In this document: in pieces, positions 502 through 59,997 of the stretch
How positions within the stretch are numbered: the stretch's first letter is position 1
How the letters are laid out: the number at the start of each line of letters is the position of its first letter
Assembly: GCA_964291655.2 (NCBI GenBank)
Contig: OZ219802.1
Span: 2,400,001-2,464,000 of the forward strand
Direction of reading: 5' to 3'
DNA: 64,000 nucleotides
From: Chloroflexota bacterium
GTDB taxonomy: Bacteria; Chloroflexota; UBA11872; VXOZ01
Notes under the pieces: model-generated
Told to the model about the DNA's origin: nothing
Seen by the model: only the letters and a program-made list of their open reading frames with translations
Databases searched by the model: none
Program-made: the position numbers and the translations under genes

Positions 502-2061
502 ATGACGGAAGACTTACCGTGTACTTCTGCAGATGCAGGAAGCCAAGCTGCGGGTGCAGGAAGCCGAACAGCAGAAGCAGATAGTCCCGGGAGCCAAGAG
601 CCTAATTCACTAGGAAGCGACCAAGCTCTGGATACACTCACAGAAACCGACGCCCGCGAACGCAGTCTGGCCCTCAATGACAGCGTTCCCGCCAGCGGCT
701 TGTTTGGCGAGGCCGACCGTCCCCTGGTGGAGGGGTCGCGCGCGTCATGGCGGATCTCGCCGGAACCGTTCCTCATTTCCCAAGACAGCCTCGAGGGATT
801 GCAGCAATTAGGAAACCAATTGCTGGCCTTCTATAGCGCGGCGAATGGACTCTACCGCCGCAGCGTGCGCGGTACCATTCCTGCGTTCTTCCATGAATAC
901 CTTGACATCGGCAAGAGCGAGACCGTAATCGACTACGGGCGCATGAATCGTTTCCGCCGCGATCTGCCTGGCGTGATTCGGCCGGACCTTCTACTCACAA
1001 CCGACGGCGTGAAGGCTGCCGAACTCGACTCCATCCCCGGTGGCATCGGCCTCACCGGCAGCATGCAGCAGCATTACAGCGGCCTGGGCTTTGACATGAT
1101 CGGCGGCGCAAACGGCATGGTGGAAGGTTTTGCCGCCATGATCCGCAGCCGCGCGGCTAAGGATGACCCGCAGCTTGCTATCGCCGTCTCCGATGAATCC
1201 AACGACTACCGTCCTGAAATGCAGTGGGTCTCCGATCAGTTGTGTGCACTTGGCATGGCTAGCGCATGCGCCAAGCCGGAAGAGATTGAATTGCACGGCG
1301 ACAGACTCATGGTTCACGACCGGCCGGTCGACACGCTTTACCGCTTCTTTGAACTCTTCGACCTCAAGAACATCCCGAACTACGACATTCTCCTTTACGC
1401 CGTGCGCAAGCAACTCGTGGCCATGACGCCGCCGGCGAAGGCGTATCTTGAGGAAAAGCTGCTCTTCGCGCTGTTCCATCATCCCGTACTGGCTGAATTT
1501 TGGAAGCAGGAGCTGGGGGCAAAGACCGTTGCCGCTTTGAAACGAGTAATTCCTGATACCTGGATACTGGATCCGCGGCCCTTGCCGCCGCAAGCGGTCG
1601 TGCCGGGACTGGAGATCGCCAAACGTCCGGTGACGAACTGGGACCAACTTAAGGGCTTGGGCCAAGCAGACCGTCGGCTCGTAATTAAGCCTTCCGGCTT
1701 TTCAGCCACCGCCTGGGGCAGCCGCGGCGTTACCATCGGCCACGACCAACCGGAATCGGAGTGGGATAATGCCGTGCAGACAGCCCTCGACGCATTCACA
1801 ACAACCCCTCACGTATTGCAGAAGTTCCATCACGGTAAGCGTTATGGCACCCGCCACTACGACTTTGCGCAGGACACAGTCCGCAAAATGCACGGACGGG
1901 TGCGCTTGAGCCCGTATTACTTTGTTGTAAACAATGAGGCGCAACTAGCGGGTATCCTGGTAACCATCGTACCGGCAGACAAGAAGCTCATTCACGGTAT
2001 GGTTGACGCCGTGATGGTGCCTGCCGCCGTAAGCGATAACGGGGTAGACATTGACCTGTAA
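502..2061 (+). CDS. ATP-grasp-like amide ligase (glutathionylspermidine synthase-like / circularly permuted ATP-grasp), function unknown
   Basis: Motifs IRPDLLL, ELDSIPGGIG, LEEKLLFAL, LVIKPSGFS..WGSRGVTIG, HVLQKF. Low-complexity N-terminal ~60 aa, so the true start may be downstream. Confidence 0.65.
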   Translation: MTEDLPCTSADAGSQAAGAGSRTAEADSPGSQEPNSLGSDQALDTLTETDARERSLALNDSVPASGLFGEADRPLVEGSRASWRISPEPFLISQDSLEGLQQLGNQLLAFYSAANGLYRRSVRGTIPAFFHEYLDIGKSETVIDYGRMNRFRRDLPGVIRPDLLLTTDGVKAAELDSIPGGIGLTGSMQQHYSGLGFDMIGGANGMVEGFAAMIRSRAAKDDPQLAIAVSDESNDYRPEMQWVSDQLCALGMASACAKPEEIELHGDRLMVHDRPVDTLYRFFELFDLKNIPNYDILLYAVRKQLVAMTPPAKAYLEEKLLFALFHHPVLAEFWKQELGAKTVAALKRVIPDTWILDPRPLPPQAVVPGLEIAKRPVTNWDQLKGLGQADRRLVIKPSGFSATAWGSRGVTIGHDQPESEWDNAVQTALDAFTTTPHVLQKFHHGKRYGTRHYDFAQDTVRKMHGRVRLSPYYFVVNNEAQLAGILVTIVPADKKLIHGMVDAVMVPAAVSDNGVDIDL

Positions 2062-2129
2062 TGTGTTGCTACCGTTTTCAGAAGCATGTGACAAATACGT
2101 TGGCTTTCCGTCAGTCTCTTCTCCCTGAG

Positions 2130-2624
2130 AAGAGCTCTGCGTAACTTTAACGAGCACGCGAAATTGGGCTGGAACGGTGGCGATTCACCCTCACCCCGGC
2201 CCTCTCCCTGTACAGACCGGGGACATAGGTAACAGTTGTTCGGGGACATGGGTAACACATTTTACTGATTGACACCTACGAGAGCATTGGGTTGGTCCGG
2301 GTTTGATAAGAGACTGGCGACACAGTGCACTCACTTTCCGCCTGTCAGCTTGTGCCAGAGAAACAAACAGTGTGCATAAGGATATTGAGTGGATCTAACT
2401 TTCAAGGCAAGGACATCGCATACTACGAAAACCCCCTCGTTCTATGGTGTTACCTATGAGCCCGAACAACTGTTACCCATGTCCCCGGTCTATACACTCC
2501 CCCAGGAGAGGGTGCAGAGTGCGAAACCGGGTGAACATAGAGCAACTCCGGTCCCCTCTCCTGGGGGAGAGGGTTAGGGTGAGGGGATGTTCTCACTTAC
2601 CGGCTTGAGTTGTGCAAAGGTCTC
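2130..2624. mobile_element. Non-autonomous element with GAGACC-type inverted ends, inserted in a REP hairpin loop; carries two REP copies and a nested IS481 MITE
   Basis: Right end GAGTTGTGCAAAGGTCTC (ends 2624), degenerate left end AAGAGCTCTGCGTAACT; flanked by direct repeat CTGAG (2125-2129 and 2625-2629), between the arms CTCTTCTCCC and GGGAGAGGG. Confidence 0.65.
2209..2496. mobile_element. IS481-family MITE (288 bp, no transposase)
   Basis: Ends TGTACAGACCGGGGACATAGGTAACAGTTGTTCGGG / CCCGAACAACTGTTACCCATGTCCCCGGTCTATACA, nearly identical to the ends of the IS at 6626-7890; duplicated subterminal GGGGACAT(A/G)GGTAACA; 5-bp TSD CTCCC (2204-2208, 2497-2501). Confidence 0.9.
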
Positions 2625-2740
2625 CTGAGGGAGAGGGCTATAGCCTGCCCCGTACTCGATACGGGGGTGAGGGTGAGAAGTTAGAGCAAAACTGGATTGA
2701 CTAGGAACTCGCAGGGGGATTTGGAGAAAAGGGAGCCGCA

Positions 2741-6298: not shown

Positions 6299-6625
6299 GC
6301 AGCTTGGCTGCGCCGACGCTTACGTCCCTGCTTCGCAGGGAGTTACCCTCCTGCCGGACCCCGTTCATTGCAATTGCCACGGCTCCCAGATTCACATGTC
6401 TTGGCCGCGAATCTGCCACGACGCGGGAGACAAGCACCCACGCTGCGGCATTACTTGCCCCCTCTCCCTCGTGAAAGCCTCCCGTATTGGCGTGCGTAGT
6501 AGGCTTTGCGCAAATTCGGCTGCAGTCCCGCATATTGCTCCCTCTCCCACACATTGCTCCCTCTCCCCTGGGAGACCTCTGCATAACCCCACTTTCAAGC
6601 AAGGGCACTCCCTCTCCCTGGGGGA

Positions 6626-7890
6626 TGTACAGACCGGGGACATAGGTAACAGATGTTCGGGTAGATAGGTTACACATTTTGTGCTCTGAGGTCTATGGTT
6701 TTTACTCTTTGGATCGAGAAGTACACGTCCCAGACACCGTCCGTTCGGGTGGGTCGCAGGGCGACTTGCTTGTGCGTGAAGGCCCTGCCCACACGGAGCC
6801 GTCTGCCTTGGAAGGAGATGCGGCCGGAGACATCGACGCTGCGTACGCGGTCGTCGGGAGCGTAGGCGAGGGCAGGCAAGGTCTCTGGGAAAGGGCGAGG
6901 ACTAGGCGTGTATCTGGTAATGGGAGTGTCGAGATCGAGGGCATGGTGTGGGCGTTCCAAGTTGTAGAAGTGGCGCCAGGTGTCAAAGGCGCGCTGGCAA
7001 TGGTCCAGGTCGGTAAAGGTGGTCCCTGCCAGCAGTTCGCTCTTGAGGGAGCGGTGGAAGCGTTCCAGCTTGCCGAGTGTCTGGGGATGGTAGGGTCGGC
7101 TGTGCAGGACGTTGATGCCCAGCTGCATGAGCCAGACGGTGAGGGGCGTGAAGGGCTGGGCACTGTCGTTACCCCAGGGAGAGCCGTTGTCCATGAGCAT
7201 GGCCTGGGGCAAGCCGTAGCGGCGAAAGACAGCGGTGAGGCGGTCTTGGACCGTCTCTCCCCGCTCGTTGGCACAGGCCTGTAACCCGAGGTTGAAGCGG
7301 GAGTGATCGTCTAGGAGGGTGAGAGGATGACAGCGGTTCTGCTGCATGACGAAATGTCCCTTGAAGTCCATCTGCCACAGCTCGTTGGGCTGGGGTCGTT
7401 CGAAGCGCACATGGGGCGTGTGCTTGGCGCTCTGGGCTGGATCGATGAGCCCATGGCGTTTGAGAATGGCATTGATGGTGCTCTTGGCCGGCACGTCGGT
7501 ATGCCCCTGGTCCTGCAGCATTCTGCGCAGCACATGGGCGCCCTTCGTAGGATGCGCCAGACGCAGCGCGATGATGCGTTCCTCCAGCGCCGGGCGCGTG
7601 CGGTGCGGACACGTGTGCGGCCGCCGCGACCGGTCGTGCAAACCGTCTTCGCCAGCTTCCGCATACCGCTCCAGCGTCTTGTACGCCGTCTTGCGACTGA
7701 TCTCCAGACGGCGACACAGCTCGCTGATGTTGGCCCCTTCCATCAGTGCCAGTGCAATGAACTCCTTGCGTTCAGACACAACCGTACTCTCCTTCCAAGG
7801 CATGGCGCTCCTCCATCTGTAAGAATCTCCATGCCTTAAGGTGTAACCTATGTGCCCGAACATGTGTAACCCATGTACCCGGTCTATACA
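6626..7890 (-). mobile_element. IS481-family insertion sequence, copy A (1265 bp)
   Basis: TGT...ACA ends (TGTACAGACCGGGGACATAGGTAACA / TGTAACCCATGTACCCGGTCTATACA), 5-bp TSD GGGGA (6621-6625, 7891-7895), single transposase. Confidence 0.95.
6670..7803 (-). CDS. IS481-family DDE transposase
   Basis: MPWKES start after GGAGGAG; N-terminal HTH; rve core WQMDFKG / MDNGSPWG / GKLERFHRSLK. Confidence 0.95.
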   Translation of the reverse strand: MPWKESTVVSERKEFIALALMEGANISELCRRLEISRKTAYKTLERYAEAGEDGLHDRSRRPHTCPHRTRPALEERIIALRLAHPTKGAHVLRRMLQDQGHTDVPAKSTINAILKRHGLIDPAQSAKHTPHVRFERPQPNELWQMDFKGHFVMQQNRCHPLTLLDDHSRFNLGLQACANERGETVQDRLTAVFRRYGLPQAMLMDNGSPWGNDSAQPFTPLTVWLMQLGINVLHSRPYHPQTLGKLERFHRSLKSELLAGTTFTDLDHCQRAFDTWRHFYNLERPHHALDLDTPITRYTPSPRPFPETLPALAYAPDDRVRSVDVSGRISFQGRRLRVGRAFTHKQVALRPTRTDGVWDVYFSIQRVKTIDLRAQNV

Positions 7891-8022
7891 GGGGAGAGGG
7901 TTGGGGTGAGGGGGTCTTTTTGCTACGATGGCCCTTTACGCTGGGCAGTGTCAAGACGTATCAGGGCAGACTCGGTGTGCATATTGAGAGATTTCAGGAG
8001 AGCCACCCTCACCCTAGCCCTC

Positions 8023-9309
8023 TGTATAGACCTGACACATAGTTTACAGGTGTACGAGGACATACTTTACACATGAGTTGGTATTTCTACACGGGGCAGA
8101 GGTCCGCGCAGGTTCAGCTCTGCTATGTGGTGGGTCATGAACCACACACTCCACACGCCGTCACTGGTGGTTGGTCTCAGGCCGATGTGGCAACCCACAA
8201 ACGCCTTGCCGACGCGGAACTCTCGTCCCTGAAAGTTGACCCAACCTTCCGCCATCACCTTGCGCGTCTCGTCGCCGTCGCCATACGTGATCGGGGGGAG
8301 TTCCTCGGGGAAGGAGCGGCGGCTCGGCGCGTAGCGGCTCAGGGGCGTTGCCATGTGGAGGGCCTGGTGCGGTCGTTCCAGGTTGTAGACGTCCCGCCAG
8401 CGGTCCAGGGCCGCTTGGCAGGTCGCGAGGTCGGCGAACCGCCTGCCTTGCAGCGCCTCAGCCTGCAAGGTGCGGTGGAACCGCTCCTCTTTGCCCTGGG
8501 TCTGCGGATGGTAGGGGCGACCATGGCTCACCGACACGCCCAGCCGCAGCAGCCAGACGGTAAGCCTGGTGTACGGGTGCGCGGCATTGCTGCCCCACGG
8601 CGACCCGTTGTCCATCAGCATACGCGCCGGCAGTCCGTAGCGGCGAAAGGCACTCGTCAGACATGCCCGCACCGTGTCTGCCCGCTCGTCCCCACAGGCC
8701 CACAGACCCACGGCGAAGCGGGAGTGGTCGTCCAAGACGGTGAGCGGGTGGCAGCGCCCGGCGTCCACGGCGAAGTGACCCTTGTAGTCCATCTGCCACA
8801 GGTCGTTGGGATACGGGTGTTCAAAGCGCTGCCAGTCCCGGTGCGTTCGCTCCACCGGGTCGATGAGATCGTGCCGATGGAGGATGTTGGTGATGGCGCT
8901 GGGGCTGGGAACCACCGTGTGACCGGCGTTCAGCAGTGCGTGGTGGAGCTTGCGACCGCCCCACGCCGGGTGGCGCTTGCGCAGTTCTACCACGACCGCC
9001 TCCACCGCAGATGGCGTGCGCCGCGGCGAGTGGTGCGGCCGACGCGAGCGGGACGTGAAGGCCTCTTCCCCCTCTTCGGCGTAACGATGCAGCAAGGCAT
9101 AGCCAGTGGGCGGCGAGATCGCAAAGCGTCGACACAACGCGCGTATGTTCGCCCCCGGCGCTCGCGCCAAAGCGACGAATTCGCGCTTAGCATCCACAGC
9201 AGTACTCTCCTTCCAAGGCATGAGGCACCTCCTTCTTTACTCAGAAAGAGTGCCATACTGTGTAAAGTATGTCTGCGCACACCCGTTAAGTATCTCTCTG
9301 GTCTATACA
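8023..9309 (-). mobile_element. IS481-family insertion sequence, copy B (1287 bp; related to but distinct from copy A)
   Basis: Ends TGTATAGACCTGACACATAGTTTAC / GTTAAGTATCTCTCTGGTCTATACA, 5-bp TSD CCCTC (8018-8022, 9310-9314). Confidence 0.95.
8067..9221 (-). CDS. IS481-family DDE transposase
   Basis: MPWKEST start after AGAAGGAGG; WQMDYKG / MDNGSPWG / GKEERFHRTL. Confidence 0.95.
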   Translation of the reverse strand: MPWKESTAVDAKREFVALARAPGANIRALCRRFAISPPTGYALLHRYAEEGEEAFTSRSRRPHHSPRRTPSAVEAVVVELRKRHPAWGGRKLHHALLNAGHTVVPSPSAITNILHRHDLIDPVERTHRDWQRFEHPYPNDLWQMDYKGHFAVDAGRCHPLTVLDDHSRFAVGLWACGDERADTVRACLTSAFRRYGLPARMLMDNGSPWGSNAAHPYTRLTVWLLRLGVSVSHGRPYHPQTQGKEERFHRTLQAEALQGRRFADLATCQAALDRWRDVYNLERPHQALHMATPLSRYAPSRRSFPEELPPITYGDGDETRKVMAEGWVNFQGREFRVGKAFVGCHIGLRPTTSDGVWSVWFMTHHIAELNLRGPLPRVEIPTHV

Positions 9310-9477
9310 CCCTCTCCCGTCGAGGGAGAGGGAACTATTTCGCCACCGCTTGAGTTGCGCTAAGGTCTCCCTGGGGAGAGGGCTGGGGTGAGGGGAGATT
9401 CTTGTCTTGCCACGTTAGCGAGAACGTGTTGACATACAATATTAATCACTTGAGTGGTGCTCATTTGCCCCAAGTGT

Positions 9478-11801: not shown

Positions 11802-14081
11802 CTAACTAGTGCGCGGTGTCCAGTTCAAATGCCGGTCCAGAAACGGAAACGTCCCCGTGCCTTCAATCATGTGGCCGCCGTCGAAGTAGTAGATTTCGGC
11901 GCGGTCGGGAATTCTCAGGTCGGCGTAGCGGCGTTGCACTCTGGCGTATTCGTAGGCACACCATTCGTCGGAGGCCACGGCGTCGCGGTGGCCGCGCTCG
12001 ACCATGAAGGGGCGGGGCGCCATTAGGTAGGCCATCTCGGCGTAGTTGAAGGTCTGGCCCAGGTTGAACTCCTGCATCTCCCATTCGTGGTTGAACATGT
12101 AACCCGAAAAGTAGTCGGTACTGGCGCATTTGCGCGCCCACTCGTTGAAGTCGCCGGCGCAAATCGAAAGCGCATACTGGGTCAGCACCGTGGGAATGCG
12201 CATGGCCGCCTTGCCGCCGTAGGACAAGCCGTAGAAGCCAATGCGGTCGGGATCGACGAACGGCAGTGTGGAAAGCCAGCGGAGTTGCTGTTCGTGCTGC
12301 GCGATGGCAAAGGTGAACAGCGTCCAGCCCAACGGATTCGCCTTGCGCTGGAGCGTGCGGAATTCGTGGTAGCCGATGTAGGGATTCTGGGGAGCGTAGG
12401 TTATGTAACCGCGCTCGGCCAGCCGGGCGGCAAAGGCATGGTATGGGCCCTCTTCTTCCTTAATGACGTCTTCGGGACGTCCTTCCAATCCGTGCTGGCA
12501 GACAACCACCGGCCGCTGCTCTCCCGGCGCAATGCCCTTGGGCACCAGCAGGATGCCGTGGGTGAAGATGTCGGGGAGCACATCCAACGTTACTTCATAG
12601 CCATCCCAGGCGTCGCTCTCGCCGTAGGGGCGGCTGCGCGCGTTGAACGGCAGGCTGGGGTCGGGGCAGCGGCCGATAAGGTCTTCCCAGAAACGTTTTC
12701 TATACGTGGCGGCGGACTTTTCCCAGGCTTCCAGTGAGGAGGTATCCGCCTCCGACCAGAAGTCTTCACGGGTGCGCCACGCCACTTCCAAACGCTGCTG
12801 CACGTGGGTCACGATCTGATTGAATTGCCGCTGCATGCGGGCGGATGGGTCGAAATGGGTGCGGGCATCGCGGGGCGATGTCGCAGTTGTCGCGCCGCGT
12901 GGTTCCACACCCATGCCTTGCAGCAACGCCGTGAGCGCGGCATCCGAGCCCGGTCCGGAGTCCGTAGCAGAGGTTGCCGCGAGCACGAGACGGTCCGAGG
13001 CGTCGTGCGCGGCGAAAGCCGACTGCGCGCGGGCAACCTCTGCCTGAACTTCCGCGAGCGGCGCGGGTTCGATCTTGCCAGGAGCGCCAACGCGCCCGCG
13101 CACACGTTCAAGATCGGTAATGGGCGGCAAGCCGCTAATGGTAGGCGCGGCAGTTGCCTCAATAATCAAGGGACGCGGCGCGACCATGCTCGCGAGTTCG
13201 GCGTCACTGAAGCCGCGTAGCAGCCGCCAGACGTTGCGATATAGGGGCTCTTGCCACAATTGCGTGCGGTTGCGAAAGTGCCCGCTCACGCCGACTGCCG
13301 CGATCCGTTCATCCAGCGCCCCGCTATAGAGCGCCAGCAGGCCGCCCTCGCCATAGCCGAACACCGCCACCGGCACGTCTTCCGGCGCTTCCTGGGACGA
13401 GAAGTAGTCTACGAGCGCCAGGAGCTTTTGCACCTCATAGCCGATAACGTGCCGCCCCATCTCGCAGGCCATGCGGTAGATGTATTCGCGGTGGGGCTGG
13501 TCGGTCATGCGAATGGTCGGATTCCCCGACCACGTGTGCGCACGGTCGATGAGCAGCGGCACCACGACCTGACATCCCAATTCCACCATGCGCCGGGCGA
13601 ATTGCTGCTCCGGCGCCAAACCGGGCGCGAGCCCAGCCAGCATCTCCGGGGAACAATCGGCATCGGGCACCGCAATTACGTGGGCGATGGGTGGCTGCTT
13701 GGGCCGCAGGAGCAGGCCTTCGCCTTCCACACCGTCCAGCACCGGCCAGCGAATGGCGTGAATGTCGTATATCCGAGTAGCGGCGACACGGAAGGGGTCT
13801 GTGGTGGAGCAGACGAATTCCAGCGCCGAAACCGGCGTGCGGTCGTCAATGACGCCGATGATGCGTGCGAATTCCGCCCGCTTTTCTGCTGCGCTTTTTT
13901 TCAGTGTTTCGGCTGAAATCGCTTGCGATAGCAGCGCGGTCTCCGCTTCTCCGTCAGCGGCAGCGAGTTCACGGTCCAAGTAACGATGAATACCGGCAAT
14001 CATCTGTGCGGCGATGTCCCCCTCGAGGGAGAGGTCAGTTGTTCCCGGCAAGTGGGTTGACTCGTTATCAAGCTGGCTCAT
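11802..14081 (-). CDS. Tandem alpha/beta-hydrolase (dienelactone hydrolase / acetyl xylan esterase-like)
   Basis: Two hydrolase modules: AVFGYGEGG (degenerate) and IGFYGLSYGG (GxSxG), C-terminal GGH. Confidence 0.8.
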   Translation of the reverse strand: MSQLDNESTHLPGTTDLSLEGDIAAQMIAGIHRYLDRELAAADGEAETALLSQAISAETLKKSAAEKRAEFARIIGVIDDRTPVSALEFVCSTTDPFRVAATRIYDIHAIRWPVLDGVEGEGLLLRPKQPPIAHVIAVPDADCSPEMLAGLAPGLAPEQQFARRMVELGCQVVVPLLIDRAHTWSGNPTIRMTDQPHREYIYRMACEMGRHVIGYEVQKLLALVDYFSSQEAPEDVPVAVFGYGEGGLLALYSGALDERIAAVGVSGHFRNRTQLWQEPLYRNVWRLLRGFSDAELASMVAPRPLIIEATAAPTISGLPPITDLERVRGRVGAPGKIEPAPLAEVQAEVARAQSAFAAHDASDRLVLAATSATDSGPGSDAALTALLQGMGVEPRGATTATSPRDARTHFDPSARMQRQFNQIVTHVQQRLEVAWRTREDFWSEADTSSLEAWEKSAATYRKRFWEDLIGRCPDPSLPFNARSRPYGESDAWDGYEVTLDVLPDIFTHGILLVPKGIAPGEQRPVVVCQHGLEGRPEDVIKEEEGPYHAFAARLAERGYITYAPQNPYIGYHEFRTLQRKANPLGWTLFTFAIAQHEQQLRWLSTLPFVDPDRIGFYGLSYGGKAAMRIPTVLTQYALSICAGDFNEWARKCASTDYFSGYMFNHEWEMQEFNLGQTFNYAEMAYLMAPRPFMVERGHRDAVASDEWCAYEYARVQRRYADLRIPDRAEIYYFDGGHMIEGTGTFPFLDRHLNWTPRTS

Positions 14082-14265
14082 GATAATGGAAGTCCTTTAC
14101 TACCTCTACGCGTTCACCTGCACAGTAGCGCGGTAGTGGGCTTTGGCGCAACCGCGATGAAGTCTGGCAACGTCTTTTTCGGTGAACTCTGCGAGATATT
14201 GATGAGCGGACAGGAAATGGCTGAATAGGTGAAGACTTCCCCCTCACCCCGGCCCTCTCCCCCGG

Positions 14266-14600
14266 GAGACCTTTGCGTAAGTCTAGAGCAAGTGTGGCAG
14301 TCCCCTCTCCCTCTGGAGACCTTTGCATAACCCTTACTGAGGCGAGGATGTCCCCTCTCCCGGCGGGAGAGGGTTAGGGTGAGGGGGAATCTACTGAAAC
14401 CTCTCCAAATACATACCGATTCTGCATTGATATGTCATGACACTGCCCAACGCAAAGGGCAATGGCAGCAAAAAAAGGCCCCCTCACCCCAACCCTCTCC
14501 CCCAGGAGAGGGAGTGCCCCTGCCTGAAGGTGGGGTTATGCAATGGTCTCCAGAGGGAGAGGGGACTTTCCCGCCCCTGCAAGACTTTTTCAAGGGTCTC
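14266..14600. mobile_element. Outer GAGACC-ended MITE inserted in a REP hairpin and containing a second MITE
   Basis: Ends GAGACCTTTGCGTAAGTCT / AGACTTTTTCAAGGGTCTC; flanks CCCGG / CCCAG; preceded by CCCTCACCCCGGCCCTCTCC and followed by GGGAGAGGG. Confidence 0.75.
14316..14550. mobile_element. Inner GAGACC-ended MITE (235 bp) carrying two inverted REP copies; uninterrupted sibling of 6572-9369
   Basis: Ends GAGACCTTTGCATAACCC / GGGTTATGCAATGGTCTC; sits at the centre of hairpin CCCCTCTCCCTCTG..CAGAGGGAGAGGGG; the flanks are inverted rather than direct. Confidence 0.85.
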
Positions 14601-14787
14601 CCCAGGGAGAGGGTGTTTCGGGCGCCGGCTCGATGAACCGAGTCTAAACTCGAAAAGGGCTTTGCACAGCACTTAGCGCAGCACTAAGCGCGAACGGGAC
14701 GTACAATTACCGTTCGCCCACCGAATCAAGCTCGGAGCAGGCTTTGCACTACGCCGGTCGGGAGGCAAGAAGGCTCCCTCTCCCCAG

Positions 14788-14927
14788 GAAGCTGTCTCAC
14801 AAATGCATCGCTCAGTGTAGACTTGCCCTTCGACAAGCTCAGGGCGAACGTAACTGGCAGGAATCCGTTCGTGCTGAGCTTGTCGAAGCACGATGTGGCT
14901 TTTCGTGTCGACTCATGAGACAGCCTC
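14788..14927. mobile_element. MITE with GA(A/G)GCTGTCTCA..TGAGACAGCCTC ends inserted in a REP hairpin loop; cargo is a family B REP pair
   Basis: 12-bp inverted ends (11/12 match), flanks CCAG / CCGG, outer arms CCCTCTCCC and GAGAGGGTTGGGGTGAGGG; a truncated copy of the left part is at about 59653-59702. Confidence 0.75.
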
Positions 14928-15046
14928 CCGGTGAGAGGGTTGGGGTGAGGGGAGATTGCCATTTTCCGGACCACTTCCTTTTGCTTGGCACAGTATAATC
15001 TGATGCAGCGACTAGCAGAATTCAATGAGGGAAGTCCGGAACAGGC

Positions 15047-16267
15047 ATGAGCGGAGATTCTCCACTAGACATTGCCATCGTCGGCGGCGGCATCGTGGGT
15101 CTTTCAACGGCGTTCACGTTGGCCCAGCGTTACCGCGGCCTGGGCATCGCCGTCTTTGAAAAAGAAGCCGACATTGCCCAGCATCAGACCGGTCACAACA
15201 GCGGGGTCATCCACTCCGGCATTTACTACCGGCCGGGCTCGCTGCGCGCGCGCATGGCGGTGCAGGCATCCCAGCGCATGATGGACTTTTGCGCAGAGCA
15301 TGGCATTCCCTACGACCGCTGCGGCAAGGTGATCGTGGCCACCGCCGGGTCACAGGTTCCCGCCTTGGAAGAATTGCTGCGCCGCGGCGAAGCCAACGGC
15401 GTGCCGGGAGTGCGCATGATCGGGCCTGAGGAACTGAAGGCACTTGAGCCCTACGCCACAGGCATCCGCGCGCTTCACGTGCCGAGCGCCGGCATCGTAA
15501 ACTACAGCCTTGTCGCAGGGATGTACCGAAAACTCCTGGAAAGGGCCGGCGGTCAGGTGCGAACGGGCGCGGAGGTGTCCGCCATTGTCACAGAGCCAAA
15601 TGCGCTGCGGCTGGAGACGACCCTGGGTGACGTGCGAAGCAAACACGTGATCACGTGCGGCGGGCTGTATGCGGACCGCGTCAGCATAGCTGCCGGCTTG
15701 AATCCGCAGGTAAGAGTCGCGGCCTTTCGTGGCGAGTACTCCGAACTCGTGCCTGAGAAGCGGTACCTCGTGCGCAATCTCATCTATCCCGTATCCAATC
15801 CCGCTTTCCCGTTTCTCGGCGTCCACTTCACGCGGCGCATCAGTGGGGCAATCGAGGTGGGGCCGAACGCCGTGCTCGCCTTCAAGCGGCAGGGATATCG
15901 GTGGCGTGACGTGAGCGTCGGCGATACGCTGGAGATCTTGGGCTATGTGGGTTTCTGGCGCATGGCGGCGCGGTACTGGCGCACCGGACTGGGTGAAATG
16001 TACCGCTCATTGTATAAACAGGCCATGGTGAAAGAGTTGCAGAAGCTCGTGCCGGACGTCACCGGCAGGGACCTAAAGCGAGCGGGGGCGGGCGTGCGGG
16101 CCCAAGCGCTGGACCGGCAGGGGAACCTGGTGGATGACTTCCACATCGTGCAGGAATCACGCATGATCCACGTGCTCAATGCGCCTTCGCCTGCGGCGAC
16201 TGCCTCGCTGAGTATTGGTTCAGCCGTAGCGGACATGGCGGGTCAGTGGCTTGACCCTAAATCATGA
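15047..16267 (+). CDS. lhgO: L-2-hydroxyglutarate oxidase
   Basis: GGGIVG FAD motif, HQTGHNSGVIHSGIYY, PFLGVHFT, NAPSPAATASL. Confidence 0.92.
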   Translation: MSGDSPLDIAIVGGGIVGLSTAFTLAQRYRGLGIAVFEKEADIAQHQTGHNSGVIHSGIYYRPGSLRARMAVQASQRMMDFCAEHGIPYDRCGKVIVATAGSQVPALEELLRRGEANGVPGVRMIGPEELKALEPYATGIRALHVPSAGIVNYSLVAGMYRKLLERAGGQVRTGAEVSAIVTEPNALRLETTLGDVRSKHVITCGGLYADRVSIAAGLNPQVRVAAFRGEYSELVPEKRYLVRNLIYPVSNPAFPFLGVHFTRRISGAIEVGPNAVLAFKRQGYRWRDVSVGDTLEILGYVGFWRMAARYWRTGLGEMYRSLYKQAMVKELQKLVPDVTGRDLKRAGAGVRAQALDRQGNLVDDFHIVQESRMIHVLNAPSPAATASLSIGSAVADMAGQWLDPKS

Positions 16268-59582: not shown

Positions 59583-59721
59583 GGGTTGTCCTCCTGGTGG
59601 GAAATTTTGCGTAACTTCGGCCGCAGGCGCTTGAATTACTCCCTCTCCCTGGGAGGCCGTCTCACAAATGCATCGCTCGGTGTAGACTTGCCCTTCGACA
59701 GGTTCTAACCCACTCCCGCCG

Positions 59722-59860
59722 GAGACTTTTGTGTAACTCCGTCATTCCGGCGAAAGCCGGAATCCAGAGCGCCTTTACAACTAAAGATAGCATGATTTCA
59801 AGTCATTTCACCCCTTTCCCAACCTTCCCCTTCAAAGGTGAAGGGCTATGCAAAGGTCTC
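59722..59860. mobile_element. GAGAC-ended MITE (139 bp) inserted in a REP hairpin loop; cargo is a family C REP plus a decayed family A REP
   Basis: Ends GAGACTTTTGTGTAAC / GCTATGCAAAGGTCTC; direct repeat CGCCG (59717-59721, 59861-59865); outer arms CCCACTCCC and GGGAGAGGG. Confidence 0.8.
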
Positions 59861-59997
59861 CGCCGGGAGAGGGGATCTTTCCGCCCCGGCAAGGTTCATT
59901 AGGATTCTCCTGGTGGGCAGGGAGAATGCTCGCATTGGATTGAGTCTTGGTCGTACTCCACGATGTGCAGGTTGCTGTGCTTCGTCGCCAATCGCCA

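Follow-up and report, generated by a model that had tools for sequence, protein, structure and literature searches.

The window analysed here is a stretch of 64,000 nucleotides from the genome of an uncultured Chloroflexota bacterium (assembly GCA_964291655.2, contig OZ219802.1, positions 2,400,001 to 2,464,000). It contains short repeats with GAGACC-type ends, which sit in the loops of hairpins formed by a repetitive extragenic palindrome (REP) with arms CCCTCTCC and GGAGAGGG, here called REP-A. [quoted passage not shown] They would share only their ~16-bp ends with a 1.2-kb insertion sequence (IS) of the IS5 family, whose 322-aa DDE transposase would move them in trans. The transposase would join the element ends to both strands at the inner edges of the inverted repeat; because joining would occur at the inner arm edges, the whole spacer (4-8 bp, usually C-NNN-G) would be duplicated, and the element would consequently sit in the hairpin loop. 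Insertion of a REP-carrying MITE would split one landing site and deliver one or two new intact REPs. Nests would arise when further MITEs, or elements of the IS1182 and IS481 families, insert into these new REPs. Taken together, this account of the MITEs, their partner and the spacer rule is considered highly probable. It rests on observed ends, element families and duplications, on the hairpin context, on the partner element found in relatives, on the empty sites and on a relic of the partner.

Ends and families of the elements

The first-pass annotation of the window had described five elements with shared GAGACC-type ends, each in the loop of a family A hairpin. All five are present at their coordinates (Table 1), and all five lie between a CCCTCTCC-like and a GGAGAGGG-like arm. 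The 11-mer end GAGACCTTTGC, with at most one mismatch, occurs eight times in the window against 1.2 expected; none of 100 shuffles attained eight. The whole host genome (G000; 3.47 Mb, two contigs) has 121 exact matches to the 11-mer and 354 with at most one mismatch, compared with 63 for the reversed control. For the 16-mer end, again with at most one mismatch, the counts are 152 and 1. The consensus of the MITE ends, a terminal inverted repeat of ~16 bp, is GAGACCTTTGCRTAAC; just outside the ends, the consensus is CCCTCTCC followed by three variable bases and G. In a pattern search, the 16-mer ends were present in 30 of 41 genomes, that is, in the host genome and in 29 of 40 relatives, including all 16 other genomes of the same genus.

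Pairing of the ends in the host genome gives 76 elements with a net length of at most 700 bp each, which make up 0.61% of the genome. They fall into size classes of ~98, 139, 235, 258 and 528-552 bp. Members of one class resemble each other over their whole length, with median pairwise identities of 0.89 (139-bp class, n=14), 0.83 (235-bp class, n=14) and 0.82 (528-552-bp class, n=10). Apart from one sibling pair and the REP copies, the interiors had been described as unrelated; this was incorrect, as the elements belong to recurrent families. Open reading frames (ORFs) inside paired elements all belong to nested copies of IS481 and IS1182. The repeats thus have the usual features of MITEs: the same ends as an autonomous element, small size, no transposase gene of their own, target duplications, and presence or absence between relatives.

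Two kinds of larger unit were considered and rejected. End-bounded units of 1.5 and 1.9 kb are not autonomous copies; their repeated cores do not reach the GAGACC ends and are bounded by termini of a different kind. These cores are IS481- and IS1182-family elements in internal REPs of 235-bp MITEs. A combination of MITE and IS1182 element (1880-1884 bp, three copies with different duplications) is not one moving unit. In the sister genome G008, the C1:761193 site holds the MITE and no IS1182 element; in addition, the MITE arms differ between copies and the IS is 98-99% identical. These composites are independent insertions into homologous REPs.

Duplication of the hairpin spacer

Exact duplications of at least 4 bp flank 33 of the 76 paired elements (three of 4 bp, 22 of 5, three of 6, four of 7 and one of 8). 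The first base is C and the last base G in 31 of them. Long or short, a duplication takes up all of the interval from CCCTCTCC to GGAGAGGG, as in CCAG, CGGTG, CTCGAG, CTTGACG and CTCAGACG. The eight bases on either side are complementary at seven or eight positions in 18 of the 33, a level reached by only 3 of 5000 random sites. Counting single ends, 147 of the 354 adjoin a CCCTCTCC arm at a spacer of 3-8 nt (3 at 3, 9 at 4, 102 at 5, 8 at 6, 21 at 7 and 4 at 8). The genome also contains 223 unoccupied intact hairpins, with a spacer of 4 nt in 113, 5 nt in 39 and 7 nt in 56.

Autonomous copies in other genomes are also found in hairpins, but these belong to other sequence families. The arms used, by lineage, are CCCTCTCC, ATTCCCG, ATTCCTG, CTTCCCC, CTGCCCC and GTCCCCG. 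Exact duplications were found at 33 autonomous loci (9 of 5 bp, 15 of 6, 6 of 7 and 3 of 8), and at least six of seven flanking bases are complementary in 22 of them. Where there is no exact duplication, perfect 6-nt inverted arms are present at 22 of 38 loci, compared with 35 of 2000 controls.

Besides REP-A, hairpins of another family are abundant in the host genome: TTCCGGC-loop-GCCGGAA has 84 copies and TTCCCGC-loop-GCGGGAA 54. This family resembles the Neisseria dRS3 pattern. The 139-bp MITE carries ~25 of the copies; the others are solitary. The family is almost never targeted by GAGACC elements here; in other lineages it is their main target.

An autonomous IS5-family partner

As the first-pass annotation stated, no cognate transposase lies in the window; the transposase genes inside the element at 6572-9369 belong to the IS481 family and are non-cognate. 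The autonomous copy that it proposed looking for exists in relatives and is not intact in the assembled host genome. In the relative G021, ends are paired 1190 bp apart seven times, and between them lies a 326-aa ORF with the Pfam domains DDE_Tnp_1 and DUF772 (PF01609, 109 bits; PF05598, 81 bits). DDE_Tnp_1 is presumably the present name of the domain formerly called Transposase_11. Close homologues of the G021 protein (E <= 2e-98) occur in eight genomes of the same genus (G002, G003, G004, G006, G010, G011, G013 and G015). Eleven loci from relatives, eight of them from the same genus, were inspected with their flanks (at one, L016, the left flank is a single base); in all 11 the transposase gene is bracketed by GAGACC ends at a spacing of 1182-1248 bp. 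An open ORF of the partner family, 322-355 aa long, is present in 10 of the 11 loci scanned. An in-frame TAG in the same-genus transposase genes, examined as a possible disruption, is just their normal stop codon, and these genes have intact ORFs of 322 aa.

The ends had been likened to IS5-family (IS1106-like) termini, and the enzyme found between identical ends agrees with the family assignment. A representative 322-aa ORF (locus L020) scores 279.2 bits on the NCBIfam IS5 model NF033581 (cut-off 140); the partner transposase scores 184 on the IS1182 model, below the cut-off of 270. The partner also has the single ORF, the length of ~1.0-1.5 kb and the short terminal inverted repeats of an IS5 element. 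Named IS5 subgroups have a fixed duplication length, for example 4 bp for the IS5 group; by contrast, the duplications of the partner and the MITEs span 4-8 bp. An alignment of the transposases contains invariant D and E columns. The best 120 of 2854 homologues either have no insertion-sequence name or are labelled "IS5 family transposase".

A further 78 autonomous-element loci were collected from named Chloroflexota and Dehalococcoidia metagenome-assembled genomes, with two loci from a Binatia genome; the end pair is present in 71 of the 78. The two loci from the genome labelled Candidatus Binatia (L076 and L079) contain the same insertion sequence, with 68% protein identity, the same ends and 6-7-bp duplications in CCTTCCCC hairpins. 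This points to a probable transfer across phyla.

In the host genome, a search for an intact partner transposase gave no protein match across the two assembled contigs, both of which end inside IS1182 copies. A tblastn search with the same-genus enzyme matched residues 1-19 and 288-322 only; both matches fall within a relic of 825 bp, bounded by the ends, at C2:1655572-1656396. An all-against-all comparison found no other repeated transposase ORF of at least 200 aa in this genome beyond the IS1182 and IS481 sets. Since the transposase gene has been lost except for this relic, the MITEs of the host genome are in all likelihood stranded copies, without a cognate enzyme in the assembled sequence; an unassembled copy of the gene could still exist.

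Two further transposon families in the same hairpin

The host genome has 25 copies of an IS1182-family element of 1668 bp with ends GAGGCTGTCTCAA..TTGAGACACCCTC and an ORF of 561-565 aa (e.g. C1:761232-762899; NF033551, 364.6 bits, cut-off 270). Identity is 99.1-100% for 24 copies and 97.9% for one; since the copies are numerous and nearly identical, they are probably active. Its insertions lie in the same REP loop, and most have a duplication of 4 bp (e.g. TGGG or TTGG). IS481-family elements have a core of ~1265-1290 bp with ends TGTACAGACCGGG..CCCGGTCTATACA (NF033577, 290.2 bits, cut-off 224; Pfam rve and LZ_Tnp_IS481). Their insertions are in the arms of this REP, where the duplications read as 5-6 bp (GGGGA(G)/CTCCC(C), CCCTC). 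Three unrelated transposon families therefore have one hairpin in common; the IS1182 and IS481 types each have mini-derivatives.

Mobility and alternative explanations

The GAGACC elements are mobile, since they have target duplications and relatives have precise empty sites. The proposed comparison of orthologous loci gave three such sites, two in G008 and one in G003. G008, the nearest relative of the host genome, has a single CCCAG in place of the host element at C2:957372-957606 and a single AATTG in place of that at C2:957723-957958. G003 has one CCGGTGG at the site of the window element 59601-59909, which in the host genome has CTGGTGG on both sides. Some insertions lie outside REPs, with the duplications AATTG, CAATG and TTACCG.

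These results bear directly on the possibility that the ends belong to a composite repeat that does not move, comparable to the REP clusters known as bacterial interspersed mosaic elements. A static repeat would account for the 42 of 76 copies without direct flanking repeats, and for the fact that the ends nearly always adjoin REP arms. It is already contradicted by the precise empty sites, two of which are at non-REP or half-REP sites, and by the autonomous copies that carry a transposase, and also has against it the insertions outside REPs; its probability is close to nil. A different possibility is that the resident IS1182-family transposase moves the MITEs, which would then not be stranded. 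Its 25 nearly identical, probably active copies insert into the same hairpin loop, DUF772 and DDE domains are common to both enzymes, and both types of end begin with GAG. The ends diverge after base 3, however (GAGGCTGTCTCAA versus GAGACCTTTGC), and the IS1182 type has mini-elements of its own. Its duplications are of 4 bp, compared with mostly 5-8 bp for the MITEs, and an insertion sequence with the exact MITE ends exists in relatives. In addition, the MITE copies are old (median pairwise identity 82-89%) and the IS1182 copies young. Mobilisation by the IS1182 enzyme is thus very improbable, and the IS5-family partner is preferred.

A third alternative concerns the way in which the partner enzyme would recognise its target. 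It might read an extruded hairpin or cruciform by shape, with a stagger equal to the loop; the other option is a pair of duplex half-sites at flexible spacing. Recognition by shape fits duplications of 4-8 bp that track the spacer, and arms that differ in sequence across lineages as listed above. It also has a precedent in the related IS1182 family: the staphylococcal elements IS1272 and TnSha1 are reported to target inverted repeats that can form hairpins and whose primary sequence is little conserved (PMC4923244, PMC5678879; partial text). Against it, one hairpin family is used per genome despite another being plentiful. In the host genome, 147 ends are at REP-A arms, and only one of the 354 is at any of the 138 dRS3-like ATTCCGGC or ATTCCCGC hairpins. 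In G038, 16 of 30 ends examined (35 were found) are at ATTCCCG-type arms and two at REP-A CCCTCTCC, despite the presence of 48 REP-A hairpins. Every arm type has a C-rich run adjoining the spacer, the three insertions outside REPs have one recognisable arm or none, and there is a strong preference for a 5-bp spacer. The hairpin family varies by lineage; arm sequence therefore counts as well as symmetry. Recognition by shape is considered unlikely. We conclude that the evidence favours a sequence component, with the arm sequence probably forming part of the recognition and having shifted between lineages.

Several points weigh against the MITE and partner explanation itself. Of the 354 loose 11-mer matches, ~63 may be due to chance, and ends were paired by a heuristic, a nearest-end stack limited to 700 bp of net length. 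A blastn search of the host genome with the partner element gave two matches, neither of them internal to the insertion sequence; interiors are not common to the partner and the MITEs, and the link between them therefore rests on the ends and on common target behaviour. We infer from sequence comparison that the partner transposase mobilises the MITEs and that the arm edges set its cut sites; no transposition was observed. The spacer rule is also not absolute. Unoccupied hairpins mostly have 4-nt spacers and occupied ones mostly 5, which indicates a preference for a stagger of 5 bp with some tolerance for others; a free stagger is not supported. At loci L092 and L093 in relatives the duplication leaves out the closing C-G pair, so that the rule is inexact there. 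Finally, the 42 elements counted above lack any exact duplication of at least 3 bp, and most of them lie between REP arms with unequal spacers.

Flanking spacers are swapped between copies in relatives: L045 with L050, which are 43 kb apart in one record, and L057 with L061. This implies that inversions or other rearrangements have probably occurred by recombination between copies. Such recombination can explain many of the missing duplications, which would be due to recombination between copies together with decay.

The nest at 14240-14613

One element had been reported here as nested in the REP carried by another, and this is the case. The outer element consists of two ~50-bp halves around a central REP, and a 235-bp element occupies that REP. 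A second arm lies 50 bases into the outer element and is followed by GAGACCTTTGCATAAC; the mirror ends are at 14550 and 14600, each with a GGAGAGGG arm next to it. The two internal hairpins of the inner element fold as DNA at -9.6 and -9.0 kcal/mol. The left 50 bp of the outer element recurs at two other loci, and at both the REP hosts a nested insert. An Rfam scan of 13800-15200 gave no match at the gathering score; sub-threshold matches to microRNA precursors reflect the long hairpin shape only.

The outer element is flanked by CCCGG on the left and CCCAG on the right, with one mismatch; G008 has CCCGG on both sides. The CCCGG duplication is intact in G008 and has mutated since in the host genome. 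The inner element has CTCTG on the left and CAGAG on the right, which are reverse complements and give no direct repeat. The same nest, shorter by 50 bp between the two right ends, is present in G008; since it is common to both genomes, it predates their split. No precise empty site was found for the nest at the orthologous loci: G008 shares it, G003 does not contain the whole 712-bp intergenic block, and G012 has the REP and a remnant. The first ~30 bases inside the left end of the inner MITE (14316-14350) are wholly different in the host genome and G008, and the remainder is ~90% identical. This divergence suggests that patchwise exchange may take place between MITE copies.

Table 1. Transposable elements and host REP parts in the window.
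Feature	Position	Strand	Remarks
GAGACC-type element	2130..2624	+	target duplication CTGAG; intact REP at 2554-2573; left end degenerate (AAGAGCTCTGCGTAAC)
IS481-type mini-element, 288 bp	2209..2496	+	ends TGTACAGACCGGG..CCCGGTCTATACA; nested in REP arm inside 2130-2624; duplication reads CTCCC
235-bp-type GAGACC element	6572..9369	+	duplication CCTGG; interrupted twice, 243 bp after subtracting two insertion sequences
IS481-family insertion sequence, type a	6626..7890	-	transposase ORF 6670-7863, 397 aa; 24 genome copies
IS481-family insertion sequence, type b	8023..9309	-	ORF 8067-9221, 384 aa; 4 genome copies; in REP arm, duplication reads CCCTC
Host REP left arm CCCTCTCC and spacer CCCGG	14253..14265		split by outer element; CCCCTCACCCC extension upstream, from 14240
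Outer small element of nest	14266..14600	+	left end GAGACCTTTGCGTAAG; right end degenerate (..TTCAAGGGTCTC)
Inner 235-bp-family element of nest	14316..14550	+	two internal REP hairpins, 14353-14373 and 14493-14512
Spacer copy CCCAG and host REP right arm GGAGAGGG	14601..14613
IS1182-type mini-element, 140 bp	14788..14927	+	ends GAAGCTGTCTCA..TGAGACAGCCTC; in loop of neighbouring REP
Decayed outer GAGACC-type element	59601..59909	+	left end GAAATTTTGCGTAAC; duplication CTGGTGG; overlooked in first-pass annotation
139-bp-family element	59722..59860	+	duplication CGCCG; nested in REP of 59601-59909; carries TTCCGGCGAAAGCCGGAA hairpin, no CCCTCTCC REP

REP cargo

Of the intact REPs in the genome, 68 of 223 lie inside paired elements and 155 outside them. 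Among these 155, 69 have MITE-like flanks, and 40 are found no more than 150 bp inward from an unpaired end. All four intact REPs of the window are MITE cargo. The elements also contain other insertion sequences: 9 of the 25 IS1182 copies, 8 of the 24 IS481 copies of type a and 2 of the 4 of type b lie inside them. The MITEs add REP copies and make nests, from which the MITE or the REP may benefit.

The first-pass annotation had proposed that ends and REP cargo together form a self-seeding unit, which could also be the route by which REPs spread. Insertion into the loop, REP cargo in many elements and nesting all agree with the first proposal; the claim that every element holds REP copies fails for the 139-bp family, of which the window copy at 59722-59860 has no CCCTCTCC hairpin. 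As a route of REP spread, the elements can be no more than one contributor. A rival view is that the cargo is incidental. The MITEs would have arisen from intergenic DNA that contained REPs, or such DNA would have entered them later; nests would form simply because every REP, wherever it lies, is a target, neither MITEs nor REPs would gain from any feedback, and the REP would multiply by other means. REP-A is abundant where ends are absent or rare, with 372 REPs and no ends in G036 and 128-211 REPs with 6-9 ends in G029, G040 and G020; this speaks against self-seeding as a general account, and the REP hairpin therefore has an independent life. The 139-bp family has reached at least 14 copies without REP-A, most intact REPs lie outside paired elements, and only 5 of the 76 paired elements are nested in another. 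On the other side, the 68 REPs inside elements are concentrated in 0.61% of the genome, close to half of the remainder have element-like flanks, and in the window the proportion is four out of four. The left half of the outer element exists in three copies, each with a nested insert in its REP. Across 17 genomes of the genus, REP and end counts are correlated (Spearman 0.89), a value that overstates the link because related genomes are not independent. Incidental cargo is given a little short of an even chance.

A combined reading may be put forward with caution. The cut sites would be set by the edges of the inverted repeat, the choice of hairpin would be retuned between lineages, and the cargo would make a self-reinforcing landing-pad system, responsible for a large share of the REPs of the genus and feeding two unrelated families of insertion sequences. 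This is a tentative proposal and, as a whole, rather doubtful.

It had also been proposed to look for a RAYT or Y1 transposase gene flanked by family A REPs. No RAYT gene tied to the CCCTCTCC REP was found in the host genome; its single Y1_Tnp match (30.2 bits) is flanked by a different repeat. On one side of this gene (226 aa; C2:2523379-2524059, corresponding to 1399-2079 of locus L005, minus strand) lie three GCGGGCG(A/G)GACGCCCGC hairpins in tandem; the other side has a single related hairpin. They form a separate small REP family with five hairpins in the genome.

Other elements of the window

The three perfect direct flanks reported earlier, CTGAG (2130-2624), CCTGG (6572-9369) and CGCCG (59722-59860), are confirmed. 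For the element at 2130-2624, the comparison with G008 gave no precise empty site, as the locus has been replaced wholesale. In G008 the surrounding intergenic region (window 2060-2720) is an unrelated 130-bp sequence, and the flanking genes are 97-98% identical. At the site of the element at 59722, G008 has a MITE of another family, roughly 250 bp long, between identical CGCCG flanks. Differing MITEs between the same flanks mean either that one loop has been used repeatedly or that there has been exchange between copies.

Comparison with known systems

It is already known that REPs are insertion hot spots, and the related IS1182 family is reported to target hairpins. The present analysis adds many natural insertions, with 33 exact duplications in the host genome and 33 at autonomous copies elsewhere. 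It also adds that the duplicated length follows the hairpin spacer and that one lineage of insertion sequences uses different hairpin families in different hosts. In the open-access literature, no report was found of an IS5-family duplication that follows the spacer, or of MITEs that carry their own REP target. With the partner enzyme and defined targets identified, the way in which an IS5-family DDE transposase reads an inverted repeat can now be tested. In these uncultured Chloroflexota, a large part of the repeat clutter between genes can be assigned to three families of transposons with their mini-derivatives, nested in a single hairpin, and passenger copies inflate counts of this REP. A genome can teem with MITEs after the loss of their enzyme.

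Insertion of IS1397 and ISKpn1 (IS3 family) into enterobacterial REP loops is the textbook case, with a duplication of 3-4 bp. The elements described here share the specific insertion into the REP hairpin loop; the enzymes differ, IS3 with rve in the former and IS5 with DDE_Tnp_1 here. We know of no families of REP-carrying MITEs for IS1397 or ISKpn1. For these two elements, experiments indicate that the transposase itself is the source of specificity (PMC1525189; partial text). In the same source, the 2006 catalogue of Tobes and Pareja, REP hairpins are listed as targets of IS3, IS110, IS4, IS256 and IS5 family elements (PMC1525189; partial text).

The same catalogue describes ISRm22 of Sinorhizobium meliloti, all copies of which lie in a REP at the palindrome axis with 6-bp direct repeats (PMC1525189; partial text). 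Hybrid flanks of some copies are ascribed there to recombination between copies, and the transposase is assigned to Pfam Transposase_11 (PMC1525189; partial text). Compared by description, the GAGACC elements resemble ISRm22 in REP-axis insertion, short direct repeats and hybrid flanks. They differ in a duplication of 4-8 bp that varies with the spacer, in non-autonomous MITEs with REP cargo and in their Chloroflexota host.

IS1106 and ISNm1106 of Neisseria, both IS5 family, are found preferentially in REP intergenic spaces (4 of 7 and 7 of 14 copies; PMC1525189, partial text). The family and the REP association are the same as here; for IS1106 the source gives only a looser "type 2" association (PMC1525189; partial text). 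The dRS3 repeat of Neisseria, ATTCCC-N8-GGGAAT (PMC3898611; partial text), resembles the ATTCCCG hairpins that are targeted by relatives of the partner element. Hairpin targeting is also shared with IS1272, which is unlike the elements described here in that they show a clean duplication of the spacer. The IS1182 family, to which IS1272 belongs, and the IS5 family are related. For IS1272, deletion of part of the hairpin and no target duplication are reported (PMC4923244, PMC5678879; partial text).

The closest annotated relatives of the partner enzyme are IS5-family genes on Rhizobium and Mesorhizobium plasmids, with 40-44% protein identity. The six plasmid records matched by the Rhizobium relative at E <= 1e-60 include none from S. 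meliloti. The Rhizobium and Mesorhizobium elements each occur as one copy, with "IS5 family transposase" as the only annotation. Their ends (GGGACTGTTGCAAAAT and GGGCCTGTTGCGTAAT) are related to those of the partner. The Mesorhizobium copy has a 6-bp duplication, ATCATT; the R. etli copy, like the partner, lies in a hairpin, CTTCTCCC..GGGAGAAG, with the duplication CAGCG.

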